Notes: generated by a model from the sequence alone, not told the origin. DNA of 64,000 bases from Candidatus Woesearchaeota archaeon (GCA_964549185.1 CAZJUI010000001.1:850-64849); one strand, 5' to 3'. Counted from the stretch's first letter, positions 7,913 to 33,471 are shown. Made by a program: numbers and translations.

Positions 7913-7915
7913 AAG

Positions 7916-11767: not shown

Positions 11768-14374
11768 GTGAGTGACGAACTAACAGTAAGAAAAGAAAAG
11801 GTTTTAAATAAAATAATTAAGAGCAAAAACATACTGATCTATTTGGGAGTTATATTAATTGCTTGGTTCGGCTATTATATAAGAACAAGGAATCTTTGGC
11901 TTCTTAATGGATATCTTGCCGATCCAGATGCCCATGTTTTCGCTAGATATGCTAAGTTTATAGTAGAAAACGGACATTTCATGTCTAATGATCCTCTACG
12001 TTATTTCCCGTTAGGATTTGATCCTCGTCCGGAATTTGGTTTTTTTTCATATATAATAGCATATTCTTACAAGATATTTCATGTATTCTCATCAATGTCT
12101 TTTGAAAAGTTTGATGTCATGCTTCCAGCAATATTTTTCATATTTGTGATTATTGTCTTTTTCTTTTTAGTAAAAAAAATATTTGATTATCGAGTAGCAT
12201 TATTAGCTTCATTATTTTTAACCATACTTCCGGCATTTTTATTCAGAACACTCTCAGGAGTTACAGATAAAGAATCTTTCGCTGTTTTACTGATGTTCTT
12301 AGCACTATTGCTTTATGTATGGGCACTTAAAACAGAAAAAATAAAATCTGCATTAATTCTAGCCATACTATCTGGGCTGGTAACAGGGTTAACTTCATTA
12401 ACCTGGGGAGGTGTTGTTTATATATTAATAACAATTGGTGGTTATGCTTTAATAGAACTCTTGCTAGGGAAATTTTCAAGGCGTGAATTCTTCATATATT
12501 TCTTATGGTTTATTTTTGCTGCAATTATAATGATAGCCATCGGCAGATATACAATTAATTCCATGATAGCCTCTTCAACAACATTGGTAATGATGTTTGC
12601 GTTTTTCTTTTCTATAGTAAATTTCTTATTCATTGATAAAAATCTATTAAAATTTAAGGAAAGATTTAAAATAAATGTTCCAGATAGCATTAAATCACTA
12701 ATATTATCTGTAATATTATTAATTATAATAACCTCTATAATTCATGATGTTAGTTTTATCCCAGATAAGATATCTGGAGTGGTAAAAAATATTAACAATC
12801 CATTAAACAATAGATGGGCGCAGACAGTTGCAGAATCTCATCAACCATATATTACAAGTTGGCCAGGTCAATTTGGTGGGGAAAGAATAGGTTGGTGGTT
12901 AATTTGGTTTACAATAATCGGATCAATAGTTTTAGTATACAAGGGAGTTTCTCCGTTAAAGAAAAGCAGAATTAAACTAACAATAGCTTATGCAATATTT
13001 ATTATATTTTTTGTTTTCAGCAGATATTCTCCCAGCTCAAAGCTTAATGGAGATAATAGCTTATCTCATTTCCTATTCTATGGAAGCATTATATTCTTAA
13101 TAGGAACTTCTATCTATCTATACCTTCGTGCGTATTATAAAGATCCAGAGGAATTTGAATCTATTCAAAAGATAGATAAAACATTAAATTTTATCATTGT
13201 ATTCTTTTTAATTGGTATCATAGGTGCAAGGACTGCTGTTAGATTAATCTTCACCTTCGCTCCTTTAGTAGCCATCCTAGTTTCATTTTTAGCTTTCGAA
13301 ACAATAGATTTCTTTTCAAAAAATAAAAAACCAATATACAAAATATCTAGTTATGCAATAGTTTTATTTGTAATGTTGATTTTTGTAATAAGTTTATCAA
13401 AAAGTATAACCGCCCAGGCAAAATATGCTGGTCCTATTTATAATCAGCAATGGCAAGCGGCAGGTGAATGGACGAAAACAAACACTCCAAAAAGTTCTGT
13501 ATTCGCTCACTGGTGGGATTATGGTTATTTGGTTCAAACAGGTTTTGAAAGAGCAACAGTAACAGATGGTGGAAATTCTATTGGTCCTTGGAACTATTAT
13601 ATGGGAAGACATGTTCTAACAGCTCAAAATCTAACCGAGCCTCTTCCATTTTTAAAATCTCATAATGTGACTCATTTACTAATAGTTTCAGATGAAATAG
13701 GAAAATATCCTGCATTCTCTGCAATTGGTTCAGATACAAACTATGATCGTTATTCCTGGATTGGTGTTTACTCTCTTGATCAAAGTCAAACTCAACAAAC
13801 AAGAAATCAAACAATCTACTTATACAGAGGTGGTATAAATTTCGATGAAGACATGACTATTAATGGACAATTTTTCGCAAGAAATGCAGCCGGAGTTGCT
13901 GGATTCTTCATTCCAATTCAAACAGATGGAAATAACACTTCCTTTGGTCAGCCTTCAGCCGTCGTCATAAACAATAATCAAAGAGTTGATATCCCATTGG
14001 AATGTATCTATCTTTCAGAACAAGAAATAATATTCCCTTCGTCTCAAGACTCATTAAAAGGATGTCTAAGATTTATTCCAACGATAAATGATCAAGGTCA
14101 AGTTAATCCTATAGGGGCAGCAATCTATCTATCGCCAAGAGTAAGAAGAACTTTGTTTGCCCACCTTTACATTTATGGAGAAAAATCAGATATCTTTAAG
14201 CTTGCATATTCTGATGAAAACCAAGTTCCATTAGCAGTCTATCAAGGCAGAATTATCGGTCCAATAAAAATATGGGAAGTTAACTATCCTCCTGGAGTCA
14301 AAACAGATCCGATCTATCTATCTCAAACATATCCAAATCCTGAAGTTACATTGGTCAATCCAAGTTATAGTTGA
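11768..14374 (+). CDS. aglB: Archaeal oligosaccharyltransferase AglB (STT3 family).
   Basis: 868 aa. A large multi-TM N-terminal domain is followed by a soluble C-terminal domain. The diagnostic WWDYGY motif is present as VFAHWWDYGYLVQ. GTG start. Confidence 0.85.
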   Translation: MSDELTVRKEKVLNKIIKSKNILIYLGVILIAWFGYYIRTRNLWLLNGYLADPDAHVFARYAKFIVENGHFMSNDPLRYFPLGFDPRPEFGFFSYIIAYSYKIFHVFSSMSFEKFDVMLPAIFFIFVIIVFFFLVKKIFDYRVALLASLFLTILPAFLFRTLSGVTDKESFAVLLMFLALLLYVWALKTEKIKSALILAILSGLVTGLTSLTWGGVVYILITIGGYALIELLLGKFSRREFFIYFLWFIFAAIIMIAIGRYTINSMIASSTTLVMMFAFFFSIVNFLFIDKNLLKFKERFKINVPDSIKSLILSVILLIIITSIIHDVSFIPDKISGVVKNINNPLNNRWAQTVAESHQPYITSWPGQFGGERIGWWLIWFTIIGSIVLVYKGVSPLKKSRIKLTIAYAIFIIFFVFSRYSPSSKLNGDNSLSHFLFYGSIIFLIGTSIYLYLRAYYKDPEEFESIQKIDKTLNFIIVFFLIGIIGARTAVRLIFTFAPLVAILVSFLAFETIDFFSKNKKPIYKISSYAIVLFVMLIFVISLSKSITAQAKYAGPIYNQQWQAAGEWTKTNTPKSSVFAHWWDYGYLVQTGFERATVTDGGNSIGPWNYYMGRHVLTAQNLTEPLPFLKSHNVTHLLIVSDEIGKYPAFSAIGSDTNYDRYSWIGVYSLDQSQTQQTRNQTIYLYRGGINFDEDMTINGQFFARNAAGVAGFFIPIQTDGNNTSFGQPSAVVINNNQRVDIPLECIYLSEQEIIFPSSQDSLKGCLRFIPTINDQGQVNPIGAAIYLSPRVRRTLFAHLYIYGEKSDIFKLAYSDENQVPLAVYQGRIIGPIKIWEVNYPPGVKTDPIYLSQTYPNPEVTLVNPSYS

Positions 14375-14413
14375 TTCGAAACATTTTTAATAATATTGTA
14401 TTAAACTCTTTTT

Positions 14414-15400
14414 ATGATACTTCAAATAATTATATTCTCTGTAATAAGTTTTCTAGTTACATTAATTATGCTACCAAAGCTTATCCGTTATCTAACAAAA
14501 ATTAATTTAGTTGTCAAAGATCAAAATAAAGAAAATCTTCCATTAATCCCTATTTCAGGTGGGATGGCTGTATTGGCTGGGATATCTGCAAGTTTATTAT
14601 TAACTGTTTTTCTGGAAACATTTTACAATAATGGAAGTCAAGAAAGAATTATCTTAATATTTGCAGCCCTATCTACAATTTTAATAATAACCTTTATAGG
14701 ATTTATAGATGATTTAATAATAAAAACCTCAAGAGAAAGTTCATCTGGGTTAAAGCAATGGCAAAAGCCATTACTAACGCTTCCAGCAACAATTCCGTTA
14801 ATCGTGGCTAATGCAGGAGTCACAATTATAGCTATTCCATTTTACAAAGCAATTGATGTTGGCTTAATCTATCCATTAATTTTGGTCCCTATAGGTATCA
14901 TAGGAGCAGCAAACATGGTTAATCTACTTGCTGGATTTAATGGTTCAGAAGCAGGCATGGGTTTAGTTTACACAGGAATGCTAGGACTATATGCTTTAGT
15001 AAATAACAGAGATTTGGCAGCAATTCTCGCATTTTCAACATTTGCAGCATTGCTTGCCTTTTTCATATTTAACAAATATCCTTCAAAAATATTTCCAGGT
15101 GATTCATTAACTTATTTATTGGGTGCTGTTATTGCAACCATAGCCATTATCGGGAATATAGAAAAGGCAGCTTTAATCGCCTCAACTCCTTTTTTTATAG
15201 AATTTATCCTAAAAGCAAGAGGCAAGTTTAAAGCACAAAGTTATGGTTTCTATAAGGATGGAAAAGTTCAATCAAAATATAGTAAAATTTATTCTATTCC
15301 CCATATATTAACGAGAACAGGAAAATATACAGAAAAGCAAGTTACTTTGTTTATGATCGTTATAGAATTATTCTTTTCAAGTTTGATATGGATACTTTAA
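14414..15400 (+). CDS. Polyprenyl/dolichyl-phosphate HexNAc-1-phosphate transferase (GPT/MraY/WecA superfamily, AglH-like).
   Basis: Multi-TM protein. It has IGFIDDLI (the DDxxD-like Mg site) and NMVNLLAGFNGSEAG (the NxxNxxDGxDGL-type motif). Confidence 0.7.
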   Translation: MILQIIIFSVISFLVTLIMLPKLIRYLTKINLVVKDQNKENLPLIPISGGMAVLAGISASLLLTVFLETFYNNGSQERIILIFAALSTILIITFIGFIDDLIIKTSRESSSGLKQWQKPLLTLPATIPLIVANAGVTIIAIPFYKAIDVGLIYPLILVPIGIIGAANMVNLLAGFNGSEAGMGLVYTGMLGLYALVNNRDLAAILAFSTFAALLAFFIFNKYPSKIFPGDSLTYLLGAVIATIAIIGNIEKAALIASTPFFIEFILKARGKFKAQSYGFYKDGKVQSKYSKIYSIPHILTRTGKYTEKQVTLFMIVIELFFSSLIWIL

Positions 15401-15401
15401 A

Positions 15402-16682
15402 ATGTACAGAAAAATAAAAAATTATATATCATCAAAAGATTTTATTAAAGATAACCTTATTTTATTTATAGCTTCTTTTATAATGAACATCCTTGGTTAT
15501 CTTTATCATTTTTCAATGGGAAGAACCCTCGGTCCAGTACAGTATGGAATTCTTGGTTCTTTATTTTCCATAATCTACATAATTACAATTCCCATTAATA
15601 CTATCCAGACAACAATAGCAAATTTTACAGCAAGGTTTAAGGTAAATAATGAAAAAGATAAAATTAATTATTTGATACGTTCATCTTTAAAGAAAATATC
15701 TATCTATAGTTTAGTAGTTATAATAATCGCAGTAATAATAACTCCATTTATTCAAGATTTTCTCCATATCTCTAACAAATATTATCTATATTTGGTTTAC
15801 GTTTTCTTTATTTTCGCTATGATCATCCCAATTTCAAGAGGGGTTTTCCAGGGTTTGCAAAACTTTAAACAACTTGGACTATCAATGATCCTTGAAGGAT
15901 TTTTCAAACTATTTCCAGCTCTCGTTCTTGTATATTTGGGGTTTGGAATAGTTGGGGCAATAGTAGCTGTAATTATCTCATATTTAATACCAATTTTAGT
16001 TTCAACATTTCAGCTTAAAGATATTATTAAAACAGAAAAAAAGAAGTTTGAATCAAAAGAGGTTTACAAATATACTGTTCCTGTAATGTTAATGCTTTTG
16101 TTCACAACATTATACTATAGTATGGATATCTTATTGGTAAAACATTTTTTTTCAGAGCATGATGCAGGTTATTATGCTGCAATCTCATTGTTGGGTAAAA
16201 TAATATTTTTCGGTTCATTATCTATCGTAATGGTAATGTTTCCAAAAGTTTCTGAAAATTATTACAATAAAAAACCACATAAAAGAATACTTTACAAATC
16301 ATTGGGAGCCGTGGCTTTATTTGGCTTTGCGGTTTCACTATTTTACTTCTTATTTTCAGATTTAACAGTAAAGGTGGTTTTTGGGGATAAATATGCTCCC
16401 ATAGCTGGTTTAATTGGTATTTTTGGCTTAATGACTACCTTTATTTCATTAAGTTATTTAATCGCATATTATAATATCTCAATAAACAAGATAAGATTTT
16501 TAATAATCTTGTTTGTGTTTGACATATTAGAAATACTCTTAATATGGTTCTTCCATAATAGCTTAGCTACAGTGATATACATATTATTATTCATGATGAT
16601 TACATTATTTATTATCTTATTTACATTATTTTATATATCAAAAGAGCGTTATCATAAACCCAGAGTAGTTAGCAAAATTTAA
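15402..16682 (+). CDS. Oligosaccharide flippase (MOP/Wzx-like polysaccharide biosynthesis protein).
   Basis: 426 aa with about 12 predicted helices. Its start lies 2 nt after the GPT gene stop, and it is co-oriented with aglB. Confidence 0.5.
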   Translation: MYRKIKNYISSKDFIKDNLILFIASFIMNILGYLYHFSMGRTLGPVQYGILGSLFSIIYIITIPINTIQTTIANFTARFKVNNEKDKINYLIRSSLKKISIYSLVVIIIAVIITPFIQDFLHISNKYYLYLVYVFFIFAMIIPISRGVFQGLQNFKQLGLSMILEGFFKLFPALVLVYLGFGIVGAIVAVIISYLIPILVSTFQLKDIIKTEKKKFESKEVYKYTVPVMLMLLFTTLYYSMDILLVKHFFSEHDAGYYAAISLLGKIIFFGSLSIVMVMFPKVSENYYNKKPHKRILYKSLGAVALFGFAVSLFYFLFSDLTVKVVFGDKYAPIAGLIGIFGLMTTFISLSYLIAYYNISINKIRFLIILFVFDILEILLIWFFHNSLATVIYILLFMMITLFIILFTLFYISKERYHKPRVVSKI

Positions 16683-16684
16683 AT

Positions 16685-18028
16685 ATGTCCTCAACTAAAC
16701 GATTGTTAAGAAAAATGAAGGTAAGTCTTGTTTTCCCTAGAATGAAATACCAAACTGGAGATCCTCCTCTAGGTATGGGTTTATTGGCTGCCAATTTAAG
16801 AAAAAACGGATTTGAAGTAGAAATCATAGACACAACATTCCATCAATCTCTTGATTATGTTAAAGAGAGGCTAACTAAGTTTAATCCTGACTGGGTTGCT
16901 ATTTATTCAGATACGATGATGTATAATGATTGCTTAAAAATCTCTGTAATGGCTAAAGAAATGGGTAAAAAGGTTATCATGGGCGGACCCCATGCAACAT
17001 TAAAACCAGAGACTTTAGTTGATCATGCTGATTACTTGGTTCAAGGAGAGGCAGAAGTTACAATAATAGATGTAATCAATGGGAAATTTAATGGTACGAA
17101 GATAGTAAAGGGAGTTCCTGCAGATATAGAAACTTTACCAATGGCAACATATGATTTACTTGAAATGAAAGAATACATCAAAAGATGGCATCTACTCGAT
17201 AGTATCAATCCTGATCTTCATGGTACAAGCATGTTTTCAGCTCGTGGTTGTTCTTTCAGATGTACCTTTTGCCAACCAGTATTAGATAAATTATTTGGTA
17301 GAATGTTTAGAACAAGAAGTGTTGAAAGTATTATTCAAGAACTTAAATATCTAAAAGAAAATGTCGGTATTAAAGCCTTTTTCTTCCAAGATGATACATT
17401 TACATTAAAAAAGATATGGATACGAGAATTCTGTAAAAGAATGATAGATGAAAAATTAGACTTATTATGGGGCTGTAATTCCCGTATTGATCTAATAGAT
17501 GAGGAGATAATGCGCACAATGTATAATGCTGGTTTAAGAGTCATGCACATGGGTCTTGAATCTGGAAGTCAAAGAGTTTTAGATGAAATATATCATAAAG
17601 ATATTAAATTAGAAGGAATTCCTGAAAAAATAGCCTTAGCAGAAAAAATTGGTATTCATTGTTTATGCTTCTTTATGTTAGGTGCTCCTGGTGAAACAAG
17701 GGAAGAAATAGAAAAAACAATTAAATTTGCTACCTCTCTTGATGCTACTGAAATAACAGCAACAATTGCAACGCCTTTACCTGGAACTTATTTATATGAT
17801 GCAATTAAAGATAAATATAAGATTACTACAGATTTTGACAATTTTGATTATTACAAAAATAGTGCTTTTGAAAATCCTGATGTAAACTTCAAAGAACTTA
17901 AATGGCTACAAAAAAAATTGTTATTTAGATTTTATACTCATCCAAAAAGGTGGGGATATATCGGAAAGCATCTTACACATCCAAGTGGATATGGAAAAAT
18001 GGTAAAGAAAATTGCTAGATTCTTATAA
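16685..18028 (+). CDS. B12-binding radical SAM protein, paralog 2.
   Basis: N-terminal B12-binding fold. The CxxxCxxC triad is GCSFRCTFC. 447 aa. Confidence 0.8.
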   Translation: MSSTKRLLRKMKVSLVFPRMKYQTGDPPLGMGLLAANLRKNGFEVEIIDTTFHQSLDYVKERLTKFNPDWVAIYSDTMMYNDCLKISVMAKEMGKKVIMGGPHATLKPETLVDHADYLVQGEAEVTIIDVINGKFNGTKIVKGVPADIETLPMATYDLLEMKEYIKRWHLLDSINPDLHGTSMFSARGCSFRCTFCQPVLDKLFGRMFRTRSVESIIQELKYLKENVGIKAFFFQDDTFTLKKIWIREFCKRMIDEKLDLLWGCNSRIDLIDEEIMRTMYNAGLRVMHMGLESGSQRVLDEIYHKDIKLEGIPEKIALAEKIGIHCLCFFMLGAPGETREEIEKTIKFATSLDATEITATIATPLPGTYLYDAIKDKYKITTDFDNFDYYKNSAFENPDVNFKELKWLQKKLLFRFYTHPKRWGYIGKHLTHPSGYGKMVKKIARFL

Positions 18029-19581: not shown

Positions 19582-20850
19582 CTACTCATCTTTTATCTTG
19601 GTTGTTTTTATGATTATATCAACAAGCCAGTGAATTTTTACACTTTCTATCTTAAATCCATGTCTCTCTATATCTTCCAAAAATTTTTTCTTTGAGAATT
19701 TCTCATCATGTGTATCTTTCCACATATCACCTACGCTTCTGGTCCATAACCACCAAAACATATTAAATAATGTGTTCTCATTTGGAACAGATATAACTAA
19801 TGTTCCGTCTTTTCTTAATACTCTATTGATATTATTTAAAGCTAAATCTCTATCTTTTACATGCTCTAAAACTTCCATTGCTGTTATTGCGTCAAAACTA
19901 TTTGCTTTAAATGGTATATCTGTTATACTTCCTCTTTTAAAATTAAATCCTCTGCAATCTTTAACATCCATTCCAATTCCATGACCTAAAAACCTAATAA
20001 AACTTCCATCTTTCATTGAATTACAAGGTTTCCCACACCCTACATCTAATAAATCCTTTTTATCAGGTAATAATCTTCTAACTTTTCTATATCTCGAATA
20101 ATGATAACTTTCTCTTAATCTATTAAACATTGGATTAAATAATCTTTTCCTAAGTTTATATAAATATAAATCTCCAAGTTGCATTACATATTCCATGTTT
20201 TGTTTCATCCCAAGTTTACTTTTTCCATCAGTTCTATTCTTGAACATATATGGAATTTCGACTGCCCTATTATAATTTCCTTTAGCTAATATTTCCAATC
20301 CTATCTTATAACCTCTAGGAACCAATCTCGCTTCTTCTATAACCTCTCTCTTAAAGAAAAAAAATCCTGACATTGGATCTTTAATTGTTGTAACAGGTTT
20401 AGCTAAAATCGTGGCAATTCTTGATGTTAATCTTCTTTGTTCTGGCCAATTAGTTACACCTCCACCTTCAATTAGTCTGCTTCCGACTGTTACTTCAGCT
20501 TCATTGTTAAATATGGGTTTTAACATATCCACGATTTTCTCAGCTGGATGGCTTAAATCAGCATCCATAAAACCTATAATCTCTCCTTTAGAAATTTCAA
20601 TCCCGTCCAAAACAGCAGATGCTAAGCCTTTCTTATCTTTCCTGCAGATTGCATTAATATTATATCTCTTATCTTTCTTTAATTTATTCACAATATCCAG
20701 TGTTCCATCTTTACTGTTGTCATCAACTATGACTACTTCTAATTTAAGTTTATTTTTTTTTGAAACTAAAAATATATCTTCCAATAATCTTCCAATATTG
20801 TCACTTTCATTTAAAGTAGGTATAATCAAAGATATATTCATTTTATACAT
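19582..20850 (-). CDS. Bifunctional GT2 glycosyltransferase (N-terminal, Dol-P sugar synthase-like) fused to a class I SAM methyltransferase (C-terminal).
   Basis: The N-terminus is ISLIIPTLNESDNIGRL...VVIVDDNSKDGT. The C-terminus has LLDVGCGKPC (SAM motif I), FDAITAMEVLEHV and VLRKDGTLVISVPN, which match the free-standing MTase paralogs. Confidence 0.7.
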   Translation of the reverse strand: MYKMNISLIIPTLNESDNIGRLLEDIFLVSKKNKLKLEVVIVDDNSKDGTLDIVNKLKKDKRYNINAICRKDKKGLASAVLDGIEISKGEIIGFMDADLSHPAEKIVDMLKPIFNNEAEVTVGSRLIEGGGVTNWPEQRRLTSRIATILAKPVTTIKDPMSGFFFFKREVIEEARLVPRGYKIGLEILAKGNYNRAVEIPYMFKNRTDGKSKLGMKQNMEYVMQLGDLYLYKLRKRLFNPMFNRLRESYHYSRYRKVRRLLPDKKDLLDVGCGKPCNSMKDGSFIRFLGHGIGMDVKDCRGFNFKRGSITDIPFKANSFDAITAMEVLEHVKDRDLALNNINRVLRKDGTLVISVPNENTLFNMFWWLWTRSVGDMWKDTHDEKFSKKKFLEDIERHGFKIESVKIHWLVDIIIKTTKIKDE

Positions 20851-21554: not shown

Positions 21555-22319
21555 ATGGAAAGCTTATCTCTAATCATTCCTGCATATAATGAAGAACATA
21601 GGATAGGGAAAACGTTGGATTACTATTCAGTTTATCTCTCTTCAAACATTAAAGATTTTGAAATTATAGTAGTTTTAAATGGTTGCAAGGACAATACATT
21701 AAATGTTATTTTAAATTATCAAAAAAAATATCCTAAAATAATTAAATATCTTAATTTTACTAATCCAATAGGCAAGGGCCCTGCGGTTATTGAAGGTTTT
21801 AAAGCAGCTAATAATGAATTAATTGGTTTTGTTGATGCTGATATGTCAACACCACCAGAAGCATTTCATGATCTTGTTTTAAAAATAAATGGCTATGATG
21901 GGATATTAGCTTCAAGATGGATTAAAGGAGCCACAATTCCAATACAGCAAAGATTGCCTCGTAGAATCGCTTCAAGGTCTTTTAACATTTTAGTAAGAAT
22001 ATTATTCAACTTAAATGTAAATGATACTCAATGTGGCTGCAAATTATTCAAAAAAAATGCGATCAAATCTATTATTAATGATATTGGCAAAACAAAATGG
22101 GCTTTTGATATTGATGTTTTATATAGATTAAATAAAAAAGGTTATAAAGTGACTGAAATCCCAACATATTGGAGTGATGCAAAAGACTCTCATTTAAATG
22201 TCACAAAAACAAGTATAGAAATGTTTTTATCAATAATAAGGTTAAGATTAATTTACTCAAATCTTGAAGTAATAGTTAAATCATACAATAAAATTCATGA
22301 TTTAATTTTAAAAAAATGA
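21555..22319 (+). CDS. GT2 glycosyltransferase, Dol-P sugar synthase-like.
   Basis: LSLIIPAYNEEHRIGKTL... with a DxD region (FVDADM). 254 aa. Confidence 0.75.
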   Translation: MESLSLIIPAYNEEHRIGKTLDYYSVYLSSNIKDFEIIVVLNGCKDNTLNVILNYQKKYPKIIKYLNFTNPIGKGPAVIEGFKAANNELIGFVDADMSTPPEAFHDLVLKINGYDGILASRWIKGATIPIQQRLPRRIASRSFNILVRILFNLNVNDTQCGCKLFKKNAIKSIINDIGKTKWAFDIDVLYRLNKKGYKVTEIPTYWSDAKDSHLNVTKTSIEMFLSIIRLRLIYSNLEVIVKSYNKIHDLILKK

Positions 22320-23362
22320 AAATATTAACAATATTGCTACCTGGAATAGGAAACACCTTACTATTTACACCAACATTAAAAGCACTAAGGAAAAATTTTC
22401 CAAATTCAGAGATTACAGCTTTGGTTATGTATAAAGGTTCACAAGAGGTATTGGAAGGAAATCCATACATTGATAAAATAATCTTCTATCCATTTATGAA
22501 AAAAGGTCATATTAAATCCTTATTTTTTGTCCTAAAACAAAGATTTCAAAATTATGATATATCAATCCTAGCTTATCCTGCCAATAGATTTCAATATTCC
22601 ATTATTGGATTTTTAATTGGAGCAAAGATTAAAATAACCCATTCATACGATCATAATAAATTATTCTCAGGAAGTTTATTTTATTCAAAAAAATTACCGT
22701 TAAATAAAAACATGCATGAAATAGAAGAAAACCTCAACCTATTAAAACTATTAAATATAAATGCTCTAGGTGAAGATAAATCAGTTTTTCTAAAATTAGA
22801 TAAAGAACATGAAATTTTTGCATCAAATTTTATAAAAAATAATAAACTAAAAGAAAAAAAATTAGTTGGTATTCATGCTGGCTCTTCTGTTTTATCTGGA
22901 ATGATAAACAAAAGATGGCCAAAGGAAAGGTTCGCATCATTAATAGACAAACTATCAAATAAAAATATTATATGTTTATTATTTGGTGGAAATGATGAAT
23001 CTGAGTTAAAAAAATGGATATATGAAAACACAAATAATAAACCTATATTGGTTAATACTCCTTCAGTAAAACATTCTGCATCTTTAATCAAGATGTGTAA
23101 CTTATTTATTTCAAATGACACTGCCCTAATGCATGTAGCTGGAGCTGTTAACACTCCAACAATAGTTCTTGTTGGGCCCGTCCCTAAAAAGACTTTACCT
23201 CAAGGGAATATTCACACCGCAATATTTAAAAATCTGCCCTGTCAGCCTTGTTATAGAATTGGAGACACAATGAAATGTGTCTTAAATATAGATTATAAAT
23301 GTCTTAAAGATATAACAGTAGATGAGGTTTACAATCTGGCATGGAAGAAATTAAAGGAATAA
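22316..23362 (+). CDS. GT9-family glycosyltransferase (LPS heptosyltransferase-like).
   Basis: The N-terminus MKILTILLPGIGNTLLFTPTLKALRKNFPNSEITAL is GT9-characteristic. The fold is GT-B and the length is 348 aa. Its ATGA start overlaps the preceding GT2 stop. Confidence 0.6.
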   Translation: MKILTILLPGIGNTLLFTPTLKALRKNFPNSEITALVMYKGSQEVLEGNPYIDKIIFYPFMKKGHIKSLFFVLKQRFQNYDISILAYPANRFQYSIIGFLIGAKIKITHSYDHNKLFSGSLFYSKKLPLNKNMHEIEENLNLLKLLNINALGEDKSVFLKLDKEHEIFASNFIKNNKLKEKKLVGIHAGSSVLSGMINKRWPKERFASLIDKLSNKNIICLLFGGNDESELKKWIYENTNNKPILVNTPSVKHSASLIKMCNLFISNDTALMHVAGAVNTPTIVLVGPVPKKTLPQGNIHTAIFKNLPCQPCYRIGDTMKCVLNIDYKCLKDITVDEVYNLAWKKLKE

Positions 23363-23892
23363 CAACAATAGAGAAAGATTCTTTTTGTATTCAACAACAG
23401 GATAAGATTATTAGAGATACAATAGAATTAATTAATAAAAAAGAGCTTAACATATTGCAATTAGGTTGTAATTTTATTGATAATTCATTATTACTGGAAA
23501 AAAACGAAAAGTATAAAATAACATTAATAGATGATAAAAATGAAACAATTAATTTCAGTAAATTAAATATATCAAAATCACCATTAACAAAAACGAACTT
23601 TGAAGACAACACTTTCGATTTAACATTTAACATAGATGTAATAAATAAAACCCAAGATCCATTAAATGTAATAAAGGAGATGGTAAGAGTTACAAGAAAA
23701 TACGGAATGATATTATTAATATTTTCAAATAATTTTGATATAAAAAAAATAATAAAAGATATAAACATTAATTTAATAGATGAAAAGATTCCGGACTTGG
23801 ATGCAAAGTTAGCTGAATATGGAAACTTCAAGATATCAAAAAATCCCCTAAGTAAAAAAGGAAAAAATTATCTAATAATGTTCAAGATTTAG
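23341..23892 (+). CDS. Degenerate class I methyltransferase-like protein, paralog C.
   Basis: FDLTFNIDVI...VIKEMVRVTRKYGMILLIFSN matches the C-terminal half of the MTase paralogs. Its motif I region is degenerate (ILQLGCNFIDNS). Confidence 0.4.
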   Translation: MEEIKGITTIEKDSFCIQQQDKIIRDTIELINKKELNILQLGCNFIDNSLLLEKNEKYKITLIDDKNETINFSKLNISKSPLTKTNFEDNTFDLTFNIDVINKTQDPLNVIKEMVRVTRKYGMILLIFSNNFDIKKIIKDININLIDEKIPDLDAKLAEYGNFKISKNPLSKKGKNYLIMFKI

Positions 23893-25414
23893 GAAATTCA
23901 TATATTATAACTAGTGGTTGTTTTTGTTCTTGGTCTGCAAAATATGCTTGTACTGGCTTTAATTCGTGCTTTTCAGGATACTCAAAATAAACTTGCCCTG
24001 AATTTTCAAAGATAGAAACAACAAAATATCTTGGATTATACTTATTAATTTCGCTTTCTTCATAAGCATATCTTGTTTCTCTTTCAGAATAATAGGTATT
24101 TTGGGGTATAGAATTGCTTATAACTACATCTCCCTTATTGGAATTTTCTTTTATCCAAAGTCCGGCTACTTTTATTGGTTCGTATGAGCTAACTTTATTT
24201 TTTATTAATGCATCACTATATCTTAATTGTTGGAAACCAACTATTAAAATTATTAGTACAACAAAACTGATTGCAATACTTTTATTATGTTTTTTAATAT
24301 AATCTGATATCAATATTATTGCTTTTGCAGCTATGAAAAATACTGCAGGAAAGACAATTATAAGATATCTATCCTCTCCTCGCCCGCTTGTATTTATAGC
24401 AACATATGTTAACAATATTAATGGTATTAGTATCCATAATAACAAAAATAAATCTTTTTTTAATTCAAGATTTTTCTCTTTTATCATTAAATCAAAACCC
24501 AATATAAGATTGATTAATAAATATAATAATCCTAATAAGAATATTATAAGCAAGACTATTTGAAGATAAGTTGGAAACATTTTTAGATAAACATTCCAAG
24601 CAGAATAAACAGCTTTTGTTTCAGGGTTTGCAATGCTTGCTTGTACCGCTGCCAATCTAGGTATCGGGGCTCCTAATGTAGCCATAGAATAAAAAATATA
24701 AGGTAATAATAATATCAAGATTATTATAGCTGCTATCCACACTTTTCTATTCTTCAAGAATTTAAATTTGTCTGTTATTAATAAATATATCAACATTACC
24801 AATCCGATAAATCCAACAGCATAGTAACTCAAAAACCCAATTAAAATTGCTAACCCAGAAAATAAAAGATATTTAAGATTAATTTGTTTAACATAACCCT
24901 TCCAAAAACAATAAACAGCAACTGTGACAAAAGCTAATGTTGGTGCTTCTGACATGAATCTTAAAGAGTAAAATAAATGTAAATAAAAAACAGATAAAAA
25001 TGCTGTTGCAATAATCGCAATTTTCTTATCAAAAATTTCTTTTCCTAAAAGATATGTAAAAATAATTGCCACCATTGAGAATAATGTTTCAATAAATCTA
25101 ATAAAAAATTCAGAAGCTCCTATTTTAAATAATAATCCCCAAAATAATGGTAATAAAGGCTCTCTATATGGAAACCATCCTGTATTTGGTGTATTAAAAG
25201 CATAATGTTTTGCCTGCAACATCATCTCAGCTTCATCCCACCATAATGGTTGATGGGAAGCAACAAATAAATAATAAAGTCTTATTATAATCCCCATGCT
25301 GATAACAACCAATGCAATAATATTTAATTTATCACTAAAAAATCCTTTTTTCTGTTCTTGAGTTTCAATTTTAATCTCTGTAGGTTTAATTTCTATCTTT
25401 GCTTCTTCTTCCAT
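23882..25414 (-). CDS. GT-C-fold glycosyltransferase, ArnT/PMT-like (COG1807-like).
   Basis: 510 aa polytopic. The first loop carries the acidic signature HQPLWWDEAEMM typical of ArnT/PMT-family GT-C enzymes. It has a C-terminal soluble domain. Confidence 0.55.
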   Translation of the reverse strand: MEEEAKIEIKPTEIKIETQEQKKGFFSDKLNIIALVVISMGIIIRLYYLFVASHQPLWWDEAEMMLQAKHYAFNTPNTGWFPYREPLLPLFWGLLFKIGASEFFIRFIETLFSMVAIIFTYLLGKEIFDKKIAIIATAFLSVFYLHLFYSLRFMSEAPTLAFVTVAVYCFWKGYVKQINLKYLLFSGLAILIGFLSYYAVGFIGLVMLIYLLITDKFKFLKNRKVWIAAIIILILLLPYIFYSMATLGAPIPRLAAVQASIANPETKAVYSAWNVYLKMFPTYLQIVLLIIFLLGLLYLLINLILGFDLMIKEKNLELKKDLFLLLWILIPLILLTYVAINTSGRGEDRYLIIVFPAVFFIAAKAIILISDYIKKHNKSIAISFVVLIILIVGFQQLRYSDALIKNKVSSYEPIKVAGLWIKENSNKGDVVISNSIPQNTYYSERETRYAYEESEINKYNPRYFVVSIFENSGQVYFEYPEKHELKPVQAYFADQEQKQPLVIIYEFPKS

Positions 25415-25483
25415 TTTTATTTCTTTAATATTCTAACTTAAATATGTTTTTATTAATCTTAAATATAGAGAATTAAGAATATA

Positions 25484-26470
25484 TTACTTTTCGTCCAAAC
25501 TTGCTAACAATTCATCTAAAGTTAATGTTGCTGTTCCAACTTTACCAATAACTATTGCAGCCGCATGATTTGCAACATACATTGAATCCTTAACTCCCAA
25601 TTCAGAAGCTAATCCCAAAGAAAATGTAACTAGTGCCGTATCTCCTGCTCCAGAAAGATCATATACTGGAACTTTTTTTGCTTTAGAATGATAGTAAAGC
25701 CCTTCTTGCCCAAAAAATTTCATTCCTTCTTTACCGCAAGTAATAACAACCCCTCCAGTCCAATATCTAGCTACAATCTCTCTACCAACATGATTTATAT
25801 GCTTATTTTTATCTAGCCCAGTTATCTCTCTTGCCTCTTTAGAATTTAACATTAAAAAATCCATATCATAATAGATGTCAGCATTTACTGGTTTGGGTTC
25901 AATAATAAATAATTTGTTTCTTCTTTTAGCTTCCCTTCTCAAAAATTTTACCAAGGTTTTAGTAATAATCCCTTTACCATAATCTGATATTAAATATACA
26001 TCAGCATCTAAATCAGATTCTCTAAAGTGATTTATTAAAAAATTAGTTTGATCTCTATTCAATCTTGTATCCATTTCTTCATCGAATCTCGCAATTAAAT
26101 CTTCATCATCAGCTATAAGCCTATTTTTTGTTGTAGTTATTCTATTTCTTAATGAAATCACTCTAGATTTAATTCCATTATAAGAAGCTAAATCATGAAC
26201 AACTTTTCCAGATTCATCATTTCCAACAATCCCATATAGATAAGCTGTAGATCCTAAACTTGCAACATTGCTTGCTGTATTCCCTGCACCACCCAAAACA
26301 TTAGAATATCCATTAACTTTCACTAAATTTGTTGCCCGTCTTTCAGGATTTAATCTTTCTATCTCCCCCATGATATAATGATCTAACATAACATCACCAA
26401 CAACTAAGATTTTTCTATTTGGAATTGTTCTAACAATTTCTTTTATTTTTTCTAGGTTCATATTAATCAC
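25484..26470 (-). CDS. D-glycero-beta-D-manno-heptose-7-phosphate kinase (HldE/RfaE domain I homolog, PfkB family).
   Basis: ILVVGDVMLDHY, GGAGNTASNVASLG, LISDYGKG, VYDLSGAGDT and AAIVIGKVGTATL correspond to conserved blocks of the HldE kinase domain. Confidence 0.75.
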   Translation of the reverse strand: MINMNLEKIKEIVRTIPNRKILVVGDVMLDHYIMGEIERLNPERRATNLVKVNGYSNVLGGAGNTASNVASLGSTAYLYGIVGNDESGKVVHDLASYNGIKSRVISLRNRITTTKNRLIADDEDLIARFDEEMDTRLNRDQTNFLINHFRESDLDADVYLISDYGKGIITKTLVKFLRREAKRRNKLFIIEPKPVNADIYYDMDFLMLNSKEAREITGLDKNKHINHVGREIVARYWTGGVVITCGKEGMKFFGQEGLYYHSKAKKVPVYDLSGAGDTALVTFSLGLASELGVKDSMYVANHAAAIVIGKVGTATLTLDELLASLDEK

Positions 26471-28356
26471 TTCGTACTTTCTACTCTCTCCCAGGCGTCA
26501 TTATAATGTTTTCTTATCAATCTAGTATCGTAATAAACACTAATCCACATATATAATCTGGCAAAAAATAATCTTAATGTCCACCAAAATTCTCTCAAAT
26601 TTTTAGGATAAGATAAAGCCCAAAATGTTCCAATAAATACTTCATTAAAAAAAGATTTAACTCTCGGAAAATCAGGAGCATATTTGGTTAATGTTTCATG
26701 AGCCTTTGCTGTTCTTTTTCTTTGTTTAAACCATTCATCAAAATTATCAGGGTTCTTAACAAATACTTTAGCCTCTTTTACATACTTAATTTTATATCCT
26801 CTTTTCCAAAAATAATAAGGGATTATGCTGTCTTCAGCTACATCTAATGGAATCTTATGGATGATATTATTTCTAAAGGCAAATAAATATCCAGAACATT
26901 CTAAAAATTTCCCTTGTTCGGATAATTTTTTTCTTATTTTATGGGCTCCAGCATCAGCCAATAAATGACTCCAATATCCAAATATATCGTCTTTTGTATT
27001 AGATGAAACAATTCTTCCTGTAACACATCCTGTTTTAAGGTCAAAAAAAGATCTAGCAATTTCATTAATTGAATTTTCTCCCAAAACAACATCACCATCT
27101 GTAAAAATCAAAATATCTCCCTTTAATTCTTTAAATAATAAATTTATTGCATAGCTTTTTCCTATTCCAGGATCTTTAAAATATTTTATATTCTGTTTTT
27201 TATTTAGCTTATTAAATAATGTTTTAGCTTCTTCATCTGGACTTGCTATAATAATTTCATAGTCGTAATCTATTTGTTGTTTCAGTATAGAATCAATAGC
27301 CTTTGGCAAATTAGGTTCTTTAAAAGAAGTAACAATAATTGATAATTTATTTTTTATTAACCTATTCGCAGCATTAACAATATTATCTACATTCATCTTA
27401 TTCATACTTTGGCAGTCTGATTTATAACAACATAAACAATTAGAATTTGGCGTTAATCTTATACCTTGTCCATACAAATCTAGTTCTGCAGCAGATGTTG
27501 GACCAACTAAAACGACAACTTTCCTGTTCAGAGCTACAGCTAAATGTAATCCTAAGCTGTCGCTGGTTACAAAAACATTACAAATTGTTATTAATGCTGG
27601 AAATTCAAAAAGATCATTGCCACATCCCGTGTTTATTATAGGAACTTTGCTTAAAGAAATAATATTGTCATTTCTTTCTATCTCATCCTGCCCGCCAAAC
27701 AGCAATATTTTATATTTATAATTTTTATATAACATTTCAGCAAGTTTTGCTGTCTTTTCTATGCTTAATTTCTTTGATGGCCAAACTCCACCAGATCCTG
27801 TATTAATTCCTATAACAATATCCTCTTCTCTTATATTATATCTTCTCTTGAAATCACTTAAAAATTTCCCTTGTTCCCTATTTAATTTTAAATTCATAAA
27901 AGTCTTATCATAATCCACTCCAACCATATCGCTAATAATTTGTTGGTACGTTTTCTTATTTTTCTTTTTGAGAATATCATTTTGGGGTTTCTTGCCTAAT
28001 TTACTCATATCATACCATTCTTTTGCGCTTTCAGAGGGTATAACTCTAAGATTTTTATCTAAATAGTTTCCAATGATCTTTCCAGTTTTAATCTTTGTAG
28101 CCAATGCACAAGCTTCAAAATCTTCATCTAAGTTAATTACAATATCAAAATGCATTCCTTCTAGGTATTTTAAATTTACCTTGCTGTAATAAACTGCATC
28201 ATCAACAAATTTATTATTTTTTATTAGGTAATAAGCATTCTTTTTTGTAAGCCAATAAATCTTTGAATCTCTATATTTTTCTTTTAATGCTGGAAGTATT
28301 GCAGTTGTTCTTACTACATCTCCCATAGCTCCTAATTTAATTATAAGAATTTTCAT
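26467..28356 (-). CDS. Fusion protein: N-terminal GT9 (heptosyltransferase-like) plus C-terminal GT2 glycosyltransferase.
   Basis: The N-terminus MKILIIKLGAMGDVVRTTAILPALKEKYRDSKIYWLT is GT9. The C-terminal half, from about residue 340, has LSIIVTSFKEPNLPKAI...FTDGDV, a GT2 DxD region. 629 aa. It is translationally coupled to the upstream kinase. Confidence 0.65.
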   Translation of the reverse strand: MKILIIKLGAMGDVVRTTAILPALKEKYRDSKIYWLTKKNAYYLIKNNKFVDDAVYYSKVNLKYLEGMHFDIVINLDEDFEACALATKIKTGKIIGNYLDKNLRVIPSESAKEWYDMSKLGKKPQNDILKKKNKKTYQQIISDMVGVDYDKTFMNLKLNREQGKFLSDFKRRYNIREEDIVIGINTGSGGVWPSKKLSIEKTAKLAEMLYKNYKYKILLFGGQDEIERNDNIISLSKVPIINTGCGNDLFEFPALITICNVFVTSDSLGLHLAVALNRKVVVLVGPTSAAELDLYGQGIRLTPNSNCLCCYKSDCQSMNKMNVDNIVNAANRLIKNKLSIIVTSFKEPNLPKAIDSILKQQIDYDYEIIIASPDEEAKTLFNKLNKKQNIKYFKDPGIGKSYAINLLFKELKGDILIFTDGDVVLGENSINEIARSFFDLKTGCVTGRIVSSNTKDDIFGYWSHLLADAGAHKIRKKLSEQGKFLECSGYLFAFRNNIIHKIPLDVAEDSIIPYYFWKRGYKIKYVKEAKVFVKNPDNFDEWFKQRKRTAKAHETLTKYAPDFPRVKSFFNEVFIGTFWALSYPKNLREFWWTLRLFFARLYMWISVYYDTRLIRKHYNDAWERVESTK

Positions 28357-30758: not shown

Positions 30759-31679
30759 TTATCCGATTGCAATCAATACTGTTCCAAAAATCATAATTAA
30801 AGCAGCTACAACATTCTTTATTATTCCTCTTTCTTTAAAGAAAATATATCCATAGATTATGCTAAAAACAATGCTTAATCTTTTTACAGATATCATATAA
30901 GCATTTAAAGTTAAACTTTGCGCTTTGAAAGAAGCCAAGCTCATCAAAGCGCTTAATGTTCCTATTATCAACAATATCCATATATTAGTTTTACTAGCTG
31001 TCCTTATTGGATTTTCTTTAAATCTTATCATTATATATAATGTAGATACAATACAGATTGAAATTATAGCCAATCCAGAAACAGCTAATGGGTTTTTTGT
31101 TTGATTTATTAAAATTTTATACAGTGGAGTTACAACAGCATATAAAAAAGCAGCTATAAGCATATACATTGATCCTTTATCTCTGAATAAGCTTCTAATT
31201 GGTTGGAATGAAATAAATCTTCCTTCTGTTTTTATTATATAAGATCCAAGAAATATCAAAAAAATCCCGATTGCTCCCAATAATGATGGTATTTCATTCA
31301 AAAAAATCCATGATATTATTGTTAAAAAAACAGGTGTAAAACTCAAAAAAGGAACTGTAATTGCTAATCCAGATATTTTAATTGCCTTTACATATAAAAT
31401 TATCGCTATCATCTCTAAAATTCCTGTAACAAAAAGCAAGAGAATTGATAATAAATCTAAATTCGGAATCTTTACAATAAATAATGTTATTATAATTATT
31501 GGTAAAGAAAAAAACCATACTGCCCATGAAACAATATAATCATTATATCTATTTAACGCTAGTTTCTGAACTAAATTATTCGTAGCTGTACTTAGTGCTG
31601 CAAATAAAGATAGTATTAGCCAAAGCATATTTATATTAAAAAAACACAGTTTAAAAAACTTGTTATTAATTAAAAACAT
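30759..31679 (-). CDS. DMT-superfamily (EamA-like) 10-TM transporter.
   Basis: 306 aa, arranged as two blocks of five hydrophobic helices. The annotated start overlaps the divergent neighbour, so the true start may be the internal Met near 31628. Confidence 0.45.
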   Translation of the reverse strand: MFLINNKFFKLCFFNINMLWLILSLFAALSTATNNLVQKLALNRYNDYIVSWAVWFFSLPIIIITLFIVKIPNLDLLSILLLFVTGILEMIAIILYVKAIKISGLAITVPFLSFTPVFLTIISWIFLNEIPSLLGAIGIFLIFLGSYIIKTEGRFISFQPIRSLFRDKGSMYMLIAAFLYAVVTPLYKILINQTKNPLAVSGLAIISICIVSTLYIMIRFKENPIRTASKTNIWILLIIGTLSALMSLASFKAQSLTLNAYMISVKRLSIVFSIIYGYIFFKERGIIKNVVAALIMIFGTVLIAIG

Positions 31680-31707
31680 TTATAACTTTTTCCACCATTC
31701 CATATTT

Positions 31708-33471
31708 ATGAAAGATGTAAAGATCGGTGACAAGATAATTGGCAAAGGCCATCCTGTCTTTGTTATAGCAGAAACAGCCTCTAGCCATGTAGGAAATAAA
31801 GAAAAACTTAAACAACTAATTAAAGCTGCAATAGATTCAGATGCAGACGCAATTAACCTACAAAAATTCTATGCAAATGAGCTTGCTGTTCCTCAAAATC
31901 CACAGCATAAAGACTTAGCAATTATTGAACTTAAAGATTCAGATTGGAAAGAAATCCTAGATTATACTAAAACATTAAACACAATTATTATAGGAAATCC
32001 ATTTGATGAATCAAGTGTTGATTTTTTTGATCCTTATGTAGATGCTTTCAAAATCCACTCTACTGATATTAATAATCCAGAAATGTTAACCAAAGTTGCA
32101 AAAAAGAATAAACCTATGTTTCTCGGTATTGGAGGAGCAAAACCTTTTGAAATAAAAAGAGCAATTAAAATTCTTCAATCAACTGGAAATGATCAAATCG
32201 TCTTAATGCATGGTTTTCAAGCCTTCCCAACAAGATTAGAAGATAGTAATCTAAAATTAATACCGACAGCAGAAAAAGAATATGATCTTCCAACTGGTTT
32301 TCTAGATCATATTGATGCAGAGACAAAGATGGCAATGGTTCTTCCATTATTATCTGTAGTTCAAGGAGCTGTTTTAATTGAAAAACATATCACTCTAGAC
32401 AGAAAATTAAAAGAATATGATTACTTTTCTGCTTTACATCCAAATGAATTCAAAGAAATGATGTTCTTAATTAGAGAAACAGAAAAAGCAATCGGTCATG
32501 GACAATTTATTCAATCAGAAGGTGAAGTTGGATATAATACCATGATGAAAAAGAATTTAGTTGCAAAAGTTCAAATAAAAAAAGATACAATTTTAACAAA
32601 AGATATGATAACTTTCAAAAGAGCTCGAGTTAATCCAGGACCTTCTCCAATTGATATAGAAAAATTTATAGGTAAATCAATAAATAAAGACTTAAATGAA
32701 AATGATCCAATTACAATGGAAGATTTAAATCTTAAATCAATTATTACATTGGCTGTTAGAATGAAATCATCTAGATTGCCAAGAAAAGCTCTAGCTGTAG
32801 TTGAAGATCAAACTGTTATCGAACATTTAATTGATAGAATGAAACTTTGTAAAGTCCCATCTGATTTAATTTTATGTACATCAACTCATCCAGATGACGC
32901 TGTTTTAATAGATATCGCAAAGAAAAAAGATATAAAATATTTTGCAGGTTCAGAAGATGATGTTATGGATCGTTTCATTAAAGCAGCATTGCCTGAAAAA
33001 GCAGATATAATTGTAAGAGTTACAGGAGATAATATTTTCACAGATCCTGAATGGCTTGATGAAACAATAAGATTCCATATAAAAAATAATCTAGATTATT
33101 CATTGCAGGATGGACTTCCAATTGGTTGTGTTTCAGAAGTTATCACTCTACATAATTTAATTAAAGCTCATGAAGCAGCTCTAGATCCTGAAAATACAGA
33201 ATATATGACATATTATTTAAGAAATGAAGATTATTTCAAGGGAAAACAATTAAAAGTTTCAGATGAATTTTATTTTCCAAATTACAGATTAACAATAGAT
33301 AATCCAGAAGATTTACAATTAATTCAAGCAATCTTTAAAGAACTTTACACTCCTGGAAAAGTAATTCCATTAAAGGATGTTCTAAATTTAATAAATAAAA
33401 AGCCTGAATTGCTAAATATAAATAAAAATGTTCAAGGAATACAATTTACAGTTAAGGGTTTGAAAAGTTAG
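31708..33471 (+). CDS. Fusion: NeuB-like nonulosonic acid synthase (N-terminal) plus SpsF/PseF-like cytidylyltransferase (C-terminal).
   Basis: The N-terminus KIGDKIIGKGHPVFVIAETASSHVGN...DADAINLQKF parallels the NeuB ORF at 37739. The C-terminal half has LAVRMKSSRLPRKAL (the SxRLPxK cytidylyltransferase motif, CTP_transf_3). I moved the start to ATG 31708; the track's TTG at 31660 would overlap the divergent gene. Confidence 0.65.
   Translation: MKDVKIGDKIIGKGHPVFVIAETASSHVGNKEKLKQLIKAAIDSDADAINLQKFYANELAVPQNPQHKDLAIIELKDSDWKEILDYTKTLNTIIIGNPFDESSVDFFDPYVDAFKIHSTDINNPEMLTKVAKKNKPMFLGIGGAKPFEIKRAIKILQSTGNDQIVLMHGFQAFPTRLEDSNLKLIPTAEKEYDLPTGFLDHIDAETKMAMVLPLLSVVQGAVLIEKHITLDRKLKEYDYFSALHPNEFKEMMFLIRETEKAIGHGQFIQSEGEVGYNTMMKKNLVAKVQIKKDTILTKDMITFKRARVNPGPSPIDIEKFIGKSINKDLNENDPITMEDLNLKSIITLAVRMKSSRLPRKALAVVEDQTVIEHLIDRMKLCKVPSDLILCTSTHPDDAVLIDIAKKKDIKYFAGSEDDVMDRFIKAALPEKADIIVRVTGDNIFTDPEWLDETIRFHIKNNLDYSLQDGLPIGCVSEVITLHNLIKAHEAALDPENTEYMTYYLRNEDYFKGKQLKVSDEFYFPNYRLTIDNPEDLQLIQAIFKELYTPGKVIPLKDVLNLINKKPELLNINKNVQGIQFTVKGLKS

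Follow-up and report, generated by a model that had tools for sequence, protein, structure and literature searches.

A putative heptose branch of dolichol-linked glycan assembly in an AglB glycosylation island of a DPANN archaeon

A 64-kb stretch of contig CAZJUI010000001.1 (GCA_964549185.1; "the window" denotes this whole stretch) carries, within a glycosylation island around AglB, genes for a stand-alone kinase of the PfkB type, for a glycosyltransferase of family GT9, and for a fusion of a GT9 with a GT2 domain. We consider it moderately probable that this segment supplies a heptose branch to the assembly of a dolichol-linked glycan, most likely that of the AglB N-glycan pathway, whose genes lie in the same island. 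Since many related archaea carry the same genes, heptose on the surface glycans of these cells is probable. The three open reading frames (ORFs) described in an earlier sequence-only reading were recovered with the domains given there, at 22316-23362 (plus strand, 348 amino acids (aa), GT9), 25484-26470 (minus strand, 328 aa, PfkB), and 26467-28356 (minus strand, 629 aa, GT9 and GT2). Related loci are referred to by L numbers.

The GT9-GT2 fusion and heptose genes in related loci

The 629-aa fusion belongs to a widespread and conserved DPANN family. A search with its sequence yielded 670 matches, and all 120 of those listed carry PF01075 together with PF00535. Except for one partial sequence, the listed matches measure 623-666 aa and span the full query with 49-95 % identity, and their named sources are nearly all Woese-, Pace- or Nanoarchaeota. 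In DPANN, the family comprises over 100 protein clusters of full length and 34 species of the GTDB, too many for the architecture to be called unusual, as the sequence-only reading had done. When one genome of each GTDB species was scanned, 80 loci with a homologue of the fusion GT2 were found, of which 34 contain the full fusion; most of the others encode the GT2 half alone, as a separate protein of ~295 aa with 50-67 % identity.

Within the fusion, Pfam places the GT9 domain at residues 63-309 (9e-16, 58.3 bits at a gathering threshold of 22) and the GT2 domain at residues 339-550 (7.5e-15). For the AlphaFold2 model (predicted local distance difference test score 88, predicted template modelling score 0.85), Foldseek retrieved the Veillonella GT9 3tov, WaaF 1psw, and WaaC 2h1h with the N-terminal half, and the GT-A cores of hyaluronan synthase (HAS), cellulose synthase (BcsA), and TarP with the C-terminal half. 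No transmembrane helix was predicted in the fusion. Its GT2 domain resembles the catalytic core of hyaluronan and cellulose synthases but lacks their membrane channel. The Asp aligned with Asp13 of WaaC and WaaF (D12) and the heptose-sensing Asp (D265) of the GT9 domain are invariant in 23 homologues, and invariance was also observed for the GT2 motifs TDGD (D419, D421), AED (E507, D508), and Q544xxR547. In HepI and HepII, Asp13 is the proposed catalytic base (bioRxiv 10.1101/2022.06.13.495986).

For the fusion family as a whole, the comparison of loci argues for heptose. Genes for GmhA, GmhB, the kinase, and HldC are all situated downstream of the fusion in L021. In L014, the fusion shares 63 % identity with the window fusion as well as the donor-site motif variant of its GT9 domain; GmhA and a canonical kinase (371 bits) follow directly downstream of the L014 fusion, i.e., at the position of the window kinase. 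In L011, a locus of a Woesearchaeota metagenome-assembled genome, AglB, GT2, and GT9 genes are followed by those of GmhA, a GSU2086-family protein, the kinase (382 bits), GmhB, and HldC (192.6 bits; cut-off 181.5). GmhB, the kinase, and HldC occur in L035, a bifunctional kinase-HldC protein in L037, and HldC together with the kinase in L046 and L047. As in the window, the kinase is the sole heptose gene beside the fusion in L016, L049, L052, and L042, fused to a cupin in the latter.

GT9 genes follow the type of heptose activation. All 14 of the 80 loci with beta-type genes (PfkB kinase and/or HldC) contain a GT9, either fused or neighbouring. Loci with an unfused GT2 were found to carry GmhA, a GHMP kinase with HddA as best model, GmhB, NTP_transferase, SDR, and GT4 genes, which correspond to the GDP-alpha-heptose type; such alpha-type genes (GHMP HddA-like kinase) occur in 13 loci, none of which contains a GT9. 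For these 27 informative loci, Fisher's exact test, which ignores kinship among the loci, gives a p of 5e-8. GT9 enzymes use ADP-beta-heptose with inversion, and this partition is as expected if the DPANN GT9 domains do so as well; from the co-occurrence, a nucleoside-diphosphate (NDP)-beta-heptose donor is predicted for them. Fused and unfused as well as alpha and beta loci are interleaved in several clades of a neighbour-joining tree of the GT2 domain, and the partition therefore does not reflect one historical event. Due to the occurrence of the unfused GT2 beside the alpha-type set in 13 loci, the GT2 family would serve heptose glycans by either route.

The published HldC hallmark (F/L)xxGxSTT was dropped as a strict filter, as it excludes DPANN sequences passing TIGR02199, and was replaced by the relaxed pattern TNGxFD..HxGH with a C-terminal ST[TS]. 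HldA-type kinases with a C-terminal cupin of ~110 aa (WGEE.W...H.H) were observed in L042 (13773-15056) and L081 (12447-13754) and as proteins P0004, P0007, and P0012; their loci lack GmhA, and the cupin may be a non-orthologous sedoheptulose-7-phosphate isomerase. L047 encodes a protein of 464 aa (7623-9017) with an RpiB/LacAB-type isomerase domain, possibly another GmhA replacement, and two HldC domains (TIGR02199, 290 bits in two stretches), adjacent to a very divergent PfkB kinase and the fusion. A GSU2086-family protein (NF052581, 420 bits, with a faint deoxyhypusine-synthase-like Pfam match) is located in or beside DPANN heptose operons (L011:9100-9996, L046 at ~15597, L050 at ~2137). 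The contigs of L036 (JAQVTJ010000115.1) and L056 (CAZSMA010000028.1), with the DPANN-type fusion or GT2, heptose genes, and 29-32 % G+C, are filed under Methanobacterium sp. and uncultured Methanosarcinales, respectively, and are probably misbinned DPANN. L012 encodes a fusion of kinase and GmhA as well as HldC, and its metagenome also yielded a close relative; that it might be the same organism was rejected because of its G+C content of 52 % vs 29 %.

Kinase, second GT9, and proposed pathway

The translation of the window kinase contains the motifs VVGDVMLD, GGAGN, SDYGKG, SGAGDT, and GKVGTATL and, in its 328 aa, no adenylyltransferase domain, in agreement with the sequence-only reading. Apart from Pfam PfkB (3.7e-30), its best NCBIfam model is TIGR02198 (rfaE_dom_I), matched at profile positions 4-313 of 315 (7e-78) with 262 bits against a curated equivalog cut-off of 345; the ribokinase model reaches 79 bits. 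The closest solved structure is Burkholderia HldA 4e84 (6e-37, 131 bits), and the next PfkB structure follows at 1.5e-11 and 47 bits. Nearly all family-invariant residues are kept (GD..D, GGA.N, T112/K115/R117, R128/D130/E132, SDY.KG, N..E, and GAGDT). [quoted passage not shown] Its earlier designation as HldE domain I thus holds with regard to the branch, which is not that of generic PfkB kinases, and is weakened by the score below the cut-off. A family Glu near residue 55 was not counted as lost because the local alignment shifts between methods. A metagenome scan with an alignment of the divergent kinases listed among its matches only canonical kinases (29-38 % identity), none with the motifs of this clade.

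With the GTG start at 26470, the kinase gene overlaps the stop codon TGA of the fusion by 4 nucleotides (nt; GTGA). An alternative ATG at 26461, 9 nt downstream and preceded by the Shine-Dalgarno-like GAAGTGAT, results in 325 aa and a 5-nt gap to the fusion. Either start is found in annotations of relatives. In both cases, fusion and kinase are tightly packed on one strand, but the 4-nt overlap exists only for the GTG start, which qualifies the translational coupling stated earlier.

The 348-aa protein and the N-terminal domain of the fusion are both GT9 proteins by PF01075, as had been assigned. The second GT9 keeps the heptose-sensing Asp (D268, corresponding to HepI D261 and HepII D269), aligned to ...nDsg/vDtg... 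of WaaF/WaaC, and a K-R-W-P motif. The module is syntenic in L001 and in six near-identical contigs. Between window and L001 the second GT9 is 78 % identical, though the kinases share only 46 %. In comparison with a relative whose module proteins are 88-96 % identical, the ratio of nonsynonymous to synonymous substitution rates (dN/dS) is 0.07-0.15 for every module gene, with 0.11 for the second GT9 and 0.15 for the kinase (against L006). By these ratios, the module genes are functional and under purifying selection.

[quoted passage not shown] At the cytoplasmic face, the GT9 domain of the fusion would then attach heptose, with inversion, to a lipid-linked glycan, whose neighbouring sugar would come from the fused GT2 domain. 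After flipping, the PMT_2-type enzyme (Table 1) may decorate the glycan outside with a hexose from dolichyl-phosphate hexose supplied by the 254-aa GT2. Methyltransferases would modify the sugars, and AglB would finally move the glycan to protein.

The glycosylation island

The window (~28.5 % G+C) consists of one long AglB glycosylation island. Due to cluster members of two module proteins labelled Candidatus Nanoarchaeia archaeon and a species-level match in the GTDB scan with the fusion (DATDYQ010000104.1, isolate SMAG_U8169), its host is a DPANN archaeon (Candidatus Nanoarchaeia). AglB, noted already in the sequence-only reading, is intact (11768-14374, plus strand) with WWDYG at residue 582, i.e., the WWDXG form. 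Together with the PF00953 priming transferase and the Polysacc_synt flippase at the same locus it provides the N-glycosylation core onto which the heptose module probably attaches. From AglB through the module, glycosylation genes form a near-unbroken run. On the plus strand, AglB, the priming transferase, and the flippase are followed later by methyltransferases, the 254-aa GT2, the second GT9, and a further methyltransferase; the order on the minus strand is GT2, GT4, a zinc-finger ORF, fusion, kinase, and PMT_2 enzyme.

Table 1. Features of the heptose module and of the N-glycosylation core in the window.
Feature	Coordinates	Strand	Evidence and remarks
AglB (STT3, 868 aa), AglH-like PF00953 priming transferase, and flippase	11768-16682	+	Pfam STT3, Glycos_transf_4, Polysacc_synt; N-glycosylation core
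GT2, polyprenyl/dolichyl-phosphate hexose synthase-like, 254 aa	21555-22319	+	Pfam PF00535, 5e-24; overlaps start of second GT9 by 4 nt
Second GT9, 348 aa	22316-23362	+	Pfam PF01075, 1e-29, 104 bits (gathering threshold 22)
S-adenosylmethionine-dependent methyltransferase, 183 aa	23341-23892	+	Pfam PF08241, 1e-8; overlaps end of second GT9
PMT_2-type GT-C glycosyltransferase, 510 aa	23882-25414	-	Pfam PF13231, 5e-21; ~ten hydrophobic segments
Stand-alone HldA-like PfkB kinase, 328 aa (GTG) or 325 aa (ATG at 26461)	25484-26470	-	TIGR02198, Pfam PfkB, HldA 4e84
Fusion, GT2 (GT-A) C-domain, residues 336-629 and stop	26467-27351	-	Pfam PF00535, PF13641
Fusion, GT9 (GT-B) N-domain, residues 1-335	27352-28356	-	Pfam PF01075; predicted NDP-beta-heptose-dependent heptosyltransferase
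YgiT/MqsA-type zinc-finger ORF, 89 aa	28411-28680	-	TIGR03831, 21 bits; between fusion and upstream GT4

The genes flanking the second GT9 and the kinase recur with the module to different degrees. The 254-aa GT2, with PgfS, ArnC, and a dolichyl-phosphate hexose transferase as best NCBIfam matches and one cluster member named dolichyl-phosphate beta-glucosyltransferase by NCBI, adjoins the second GT9 also in L001, L015, L022, and L028. The 183-aa methyltransferase, which probably methylates a sugar, is kept beside the second GT9 in L001 and L005-L010. The PMT_2 enzyme is predicted to transfer a dolichyl-phosphate-linked sugar at the outer membrane face; 28 of the 34 species loci encode a homologue of it no farther than 10 kb from the fusion, and this gene usually follows immediately downstream. 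The zinc-finger ORF is shared by the window and L009 (16055-16324), and L005-L008 and L010 lack it at this site; it is variable and probably outside the heptose pathway. A GT2-methyltransferase fusion of 422 aa upstream of the module (19582-20850) is kept in all close relatives.

Elsewhere in the window lie NeuB and CMP-sugar synthetase fusions, more GT-C genes, a carbamoyltransferase, toxin-antitoxin genes, and genes of four B12-radical-SAM enzymes; when the window was scanned for tRNAs and Rfam families, nothing was found. Two NeuB homologues, one of which is fused to SAF and a CMP-sugar synthetase (CTP_transf_3), and a GT2-CTP_transf_3 fusion (31660-33471, 37739-38809, 38802-40193) suggest that nonulosonic acids are made by one or two pathways. 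As stand-ins for a heptose nucleotidyltransferase, the CTP_transf_3 domains at 31660-33471 and 38802-40193 were dropped because they are of the CMP-sugar synthetase type, fused or adjacent to NeuB, and point to nonulosonic acids. The four B12-binding radical-SAM enzymes (2643-4061, 16685-18028, 41313-42767, 46824-48350) and a SPASM radical-SAM protein (40229-41305) may C-methylate or otherwise alter sugars. A carbamoyltransferase of the NodU/CmcH type adjoining a second PMT_2 GT-C gene, together with a DUF6798 membrane protein and a weak third PMT_2-like gene (50922-52595, 52656-54326, 45169-46722, 10355-11704), points to more than one glycan modification at the outer face. Toxin-antitoxin-type genes within the island (1794-2138, 42913-43230, 56159-57164) encode a MazF/PemK toxin, a lone MNT-type nucleotidyltransferase, and a HEPN-nucleotidyltransferase pair. 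Compared to L005-L008, the module core is conserved among strains and the flanks differ (15402-18028 and 30759-33471 of the window): in L005-L008, the flippase is followed by NanE and an unknown gene, and an EamA transporter by HAD, APH-type kinase, and DHDPS genes; in the window, the NeuB fusion comes after this transporter instead. These differences represent strain-level remodelling of the glycan island.

Alternative interpretations and known systems

Several observations weigh against heptose as the substrate of the window module, and some of them favour its main rival, according to which the kinase of the clade formed by the window, L001, and L016 lineages acts on another sugar or sugar phosphate and the GT9s use a donor other than NDP-heptose or a base-independent acceptor, so that the product is no heptoside. 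Like the window kinase, those of L001 (P0003, 249.5 bits) and L016 (229 bits), with which it clusters on the tree, remain below the cut-off of TIGR02198, which is exceeded by DPANN kinases adjoining GmhA (355-382 bits). The three kinases have common changes at positions conserved to more than 93 % (RISPE to R.NPE, DPK to [EQ]PK, TPN to MLN), which read NPE, EPK, and MLN in the window. The second GT9 has Asn13 where WaaC and WaaF have the catalytic Asp13, the profile alignment setting GIGN opposite WaaF vGD and WaaC mGD; Asn occurs in the window, L001, L006/L015, and L016, i.e., in all three lineages, and Asp (GIGD or GLGD) in L019, L022, L028, L035, and L075. The cut-offs of the heptosyltransferase equivalogs are missed by the second GT9 (92.6 vs 170.2 for HepIII, 84.2 vs 134.6 for HepII) as well as by the fusion, which reaches none of those for WaaC, WaaF, and WaaQ (best 53.5 vs 134.6). 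No GmhA, GmhB, HldC, HddA, HddC, cupin or RpiB-type isomerase, and no sugar-1-phosphate nucleotidyltransferase was found in the 64-kb window; GmhA, GmhB, and HldC are likewise missing from the 21-kb loci of the relatives and from L001, and from the available sequence of all three lineages. Moreover, 53 of the 80 loci lack a heptose-activation gene (kinase, HldC or HddA-like), many of them on short contigs, and the disregard of kinship in the co-occurrence test counts on this side, too. L081, with a divergent and a canonical kinase in one operon, hints at distinct roles of the two. Such a repurposing is nevertheless unlikely in our estimate. The kinases of the clade retain catalytic and likely sugar-, phosphate-, and ATP-binding residues; in L047 a still more divergent kinase is paired with the RpiB-HldC-HldC protein, so divergent kinases do occur in heptose operons; and the GT9 domain of the fusion shares 63 % identity and the donor-site motif variant with that of L014, where GmhA and a canonical kinase are adjacent. 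The heptose genes of Escherichia coli are scattered around the chromosome, and absence from one locus therefore proves little. Among the 120 listed of at least 7999 matches of an HldC profile search are many Woesearchaeota and Nanoarchaeota HldC proteins, and none of these 120 lies on a contig of the window lineage. All in all, the window lineage is atypical in its divergent kinase, its Asn-bearing second GT9, and the lack of any other heptose gene in 64 kb. The earlier suggestion of heptose in an archaeal glycan is supported by comparison with the relatives, where GT9 tracks beta-type genes in all 27 informative loci and synteny is seen in L021, L011, and L014.

Somewhat less probable still is that the chemistry is as proposed but serves another target, the GT9-GT2 and PMT_2 core building an O-linked glycan or else a glycolipid or lipoglycan anchored in the membrane, with the proximity of aglB reflecting mere clustering of surface-glycan genes. 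The motif set of the fusion GT2 (D, DxD, ED, QxxR) is that of GT2s directed to lipids or polymers, the PMT_2 family includes ArnT and protein O-mannosyltransferases according to its Pfam description, only 7 of the 34 species loci have AglB no farther than 10 kb from the fusion, and further GT-C genes and a second flippase in the window suggest more than one glycan. On the other hand, AglB, priming transferase, and flippase genes recur adjacent to the fusion in L013/L024, AglB is near the fusion in L030, L032, and L037 and adjoins a GT9 and a heptose operon in L011, and no sign of a gene for lipid-anchor synthesis was seen in the window. As to the horizontal acquisition considered in the sequence-only reading, a recently acquired bacterial lipopolysaccharide (LPS)-core cassette, carried as passenger or decaying, is highly improbable and effectively refuted, although the kinase and the GT9s have their nearest named relatives among bacteria. 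The module genes have 27-31 % G+C, equal to the rest of the window, their dN/dS ratios are low (0.07-0.15), the family occurs with conserved synteny in dozens of DPANN species, and identity to bacterial proteins is merely 14-41 %. Recent horizontal acquisition is thus not supported by composition or similarity, and an ancient inter-domain origin of the module is likely. Likewise, the label "LPS-core-like" appears overstated, since the GT9s stay below every WaaC, WaaF, and WaaQ cut-off and no genes for lipid A or 3-deoxy-D-manno-oct-2-ulosonic acid (Kdo) were seen among the Pfam matches of the window.

Returning to the heptose branch as the preferred interpretation, it is tempting to speculate more broadly, though we hold the following for rather doubtful, that Woese-, Pace-, and Nanoarchaeia of the DPANN widely heptosylate a dolichol-linked surface glycan by a conserved core of GT2 (often fused to GT9) and GT-C enzymes. 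Two interchangeable supplies would feed this core, NDP-beta-heptose (PfkB kinase and HldC, always with GT9) and GDP-alpha-heptose (GHMP kinase and HddC, never with GT9), and the system would be further remodelled in the window lineage by its divergent kinase and the replacement of Asp by Asn in a GT9. If true, this would be the first physiological role of archaeal NDP-heptose, and the remodelling in the window lineage could mean a heptose-phosphate or non-heptose linkage made by no known GT9. The rule that GT9 indicates the beta and its absence the alpha pathway is testable on all DPANN genomes, and targets for expression and assays are the bifunctional transferase of 629 aa, the divergent kinase, and the GT9 with Asn. 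ADP-heptose is an innate-immune agonist. The locus and its relatives link archaeal heptose enzymes to dedicated transferases in glycosylation islands of uncultured, host-dependent DPANN, for whose attachment to hosts surface glycans likely matter. No description of the fusion family or of this association was found in the literature on DPANN, Woesearchaeota or archaea with heptose, heptosyltransferase, GT9 or AglB/N-glycosylation; apparently, the module is an undescribed archaeal variant of known bacterial chemistry that is widespread in DPANN.

Heptose activation and GT9 transfer are textbook chemistry of the Gram-negative envelope. The module resembles the bacterial LPS heptose system in the HldA type of its PfkB-type anomeric kinase, in a GT-B GT9 with an Asp13-type base (in the window, that of the fusion) and a heptose-sensing Asp, and in the split HldA/HldC arrangement of related DPANN loci. 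It differs from this system in that Kdo2-lipid A is missing as acceptor, an HldD epimerase was not seen, its GT9 is fused to a GT2 in an AglB/dolichol context, its scores are far under the equivalog cut-offs, and the kinase step alone is encoded. The GDP-D-glycero-alpha-D-manno-heptose pathway (GmhA, HddA, GmhB, HddC) is known from Gram-positive S-layer glycans and Campylobacter capsules. The same gene set, extended by an SDR, is located beside unfused GT2 homologues in 13 DPANN species loci, whereas the window lineage has a PfkB (beta) kinase and neither a GHMP kinase nor an NTP_transferase. In Haloferax volcanii, the last sugar of the N-glycan is added by AglD and AglS, a dolichyl-phosphate-mannose synthase and an outer-face transferase; by gene pairing alone, the 254-aa GT2 and the multi-spanning PMT_2 enzyme resemble this couple. 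A precedent for heptose in an archaeal N-glycan, albeit in another phylum, is given by Thermoplasma acidophilum, whose N-linked glycan contains heptose (review PMC11407970). According to commentaries (PMC11461863, PMC11573728) on Tang et al. (Science 2024), archaea possess functional genes of heptose kinases and nucleotidyltransferases, and fusion variants of isomerase, kinase, and nucleotidyltransferase domains are known. That work aimed at immune agonists, and the reason why archaea make heptose "remains elusive" (PMC11573728). The DPANN genes described here differ in being tied to GT9 transferases and AglB loci, which suggests a use for the heptose.

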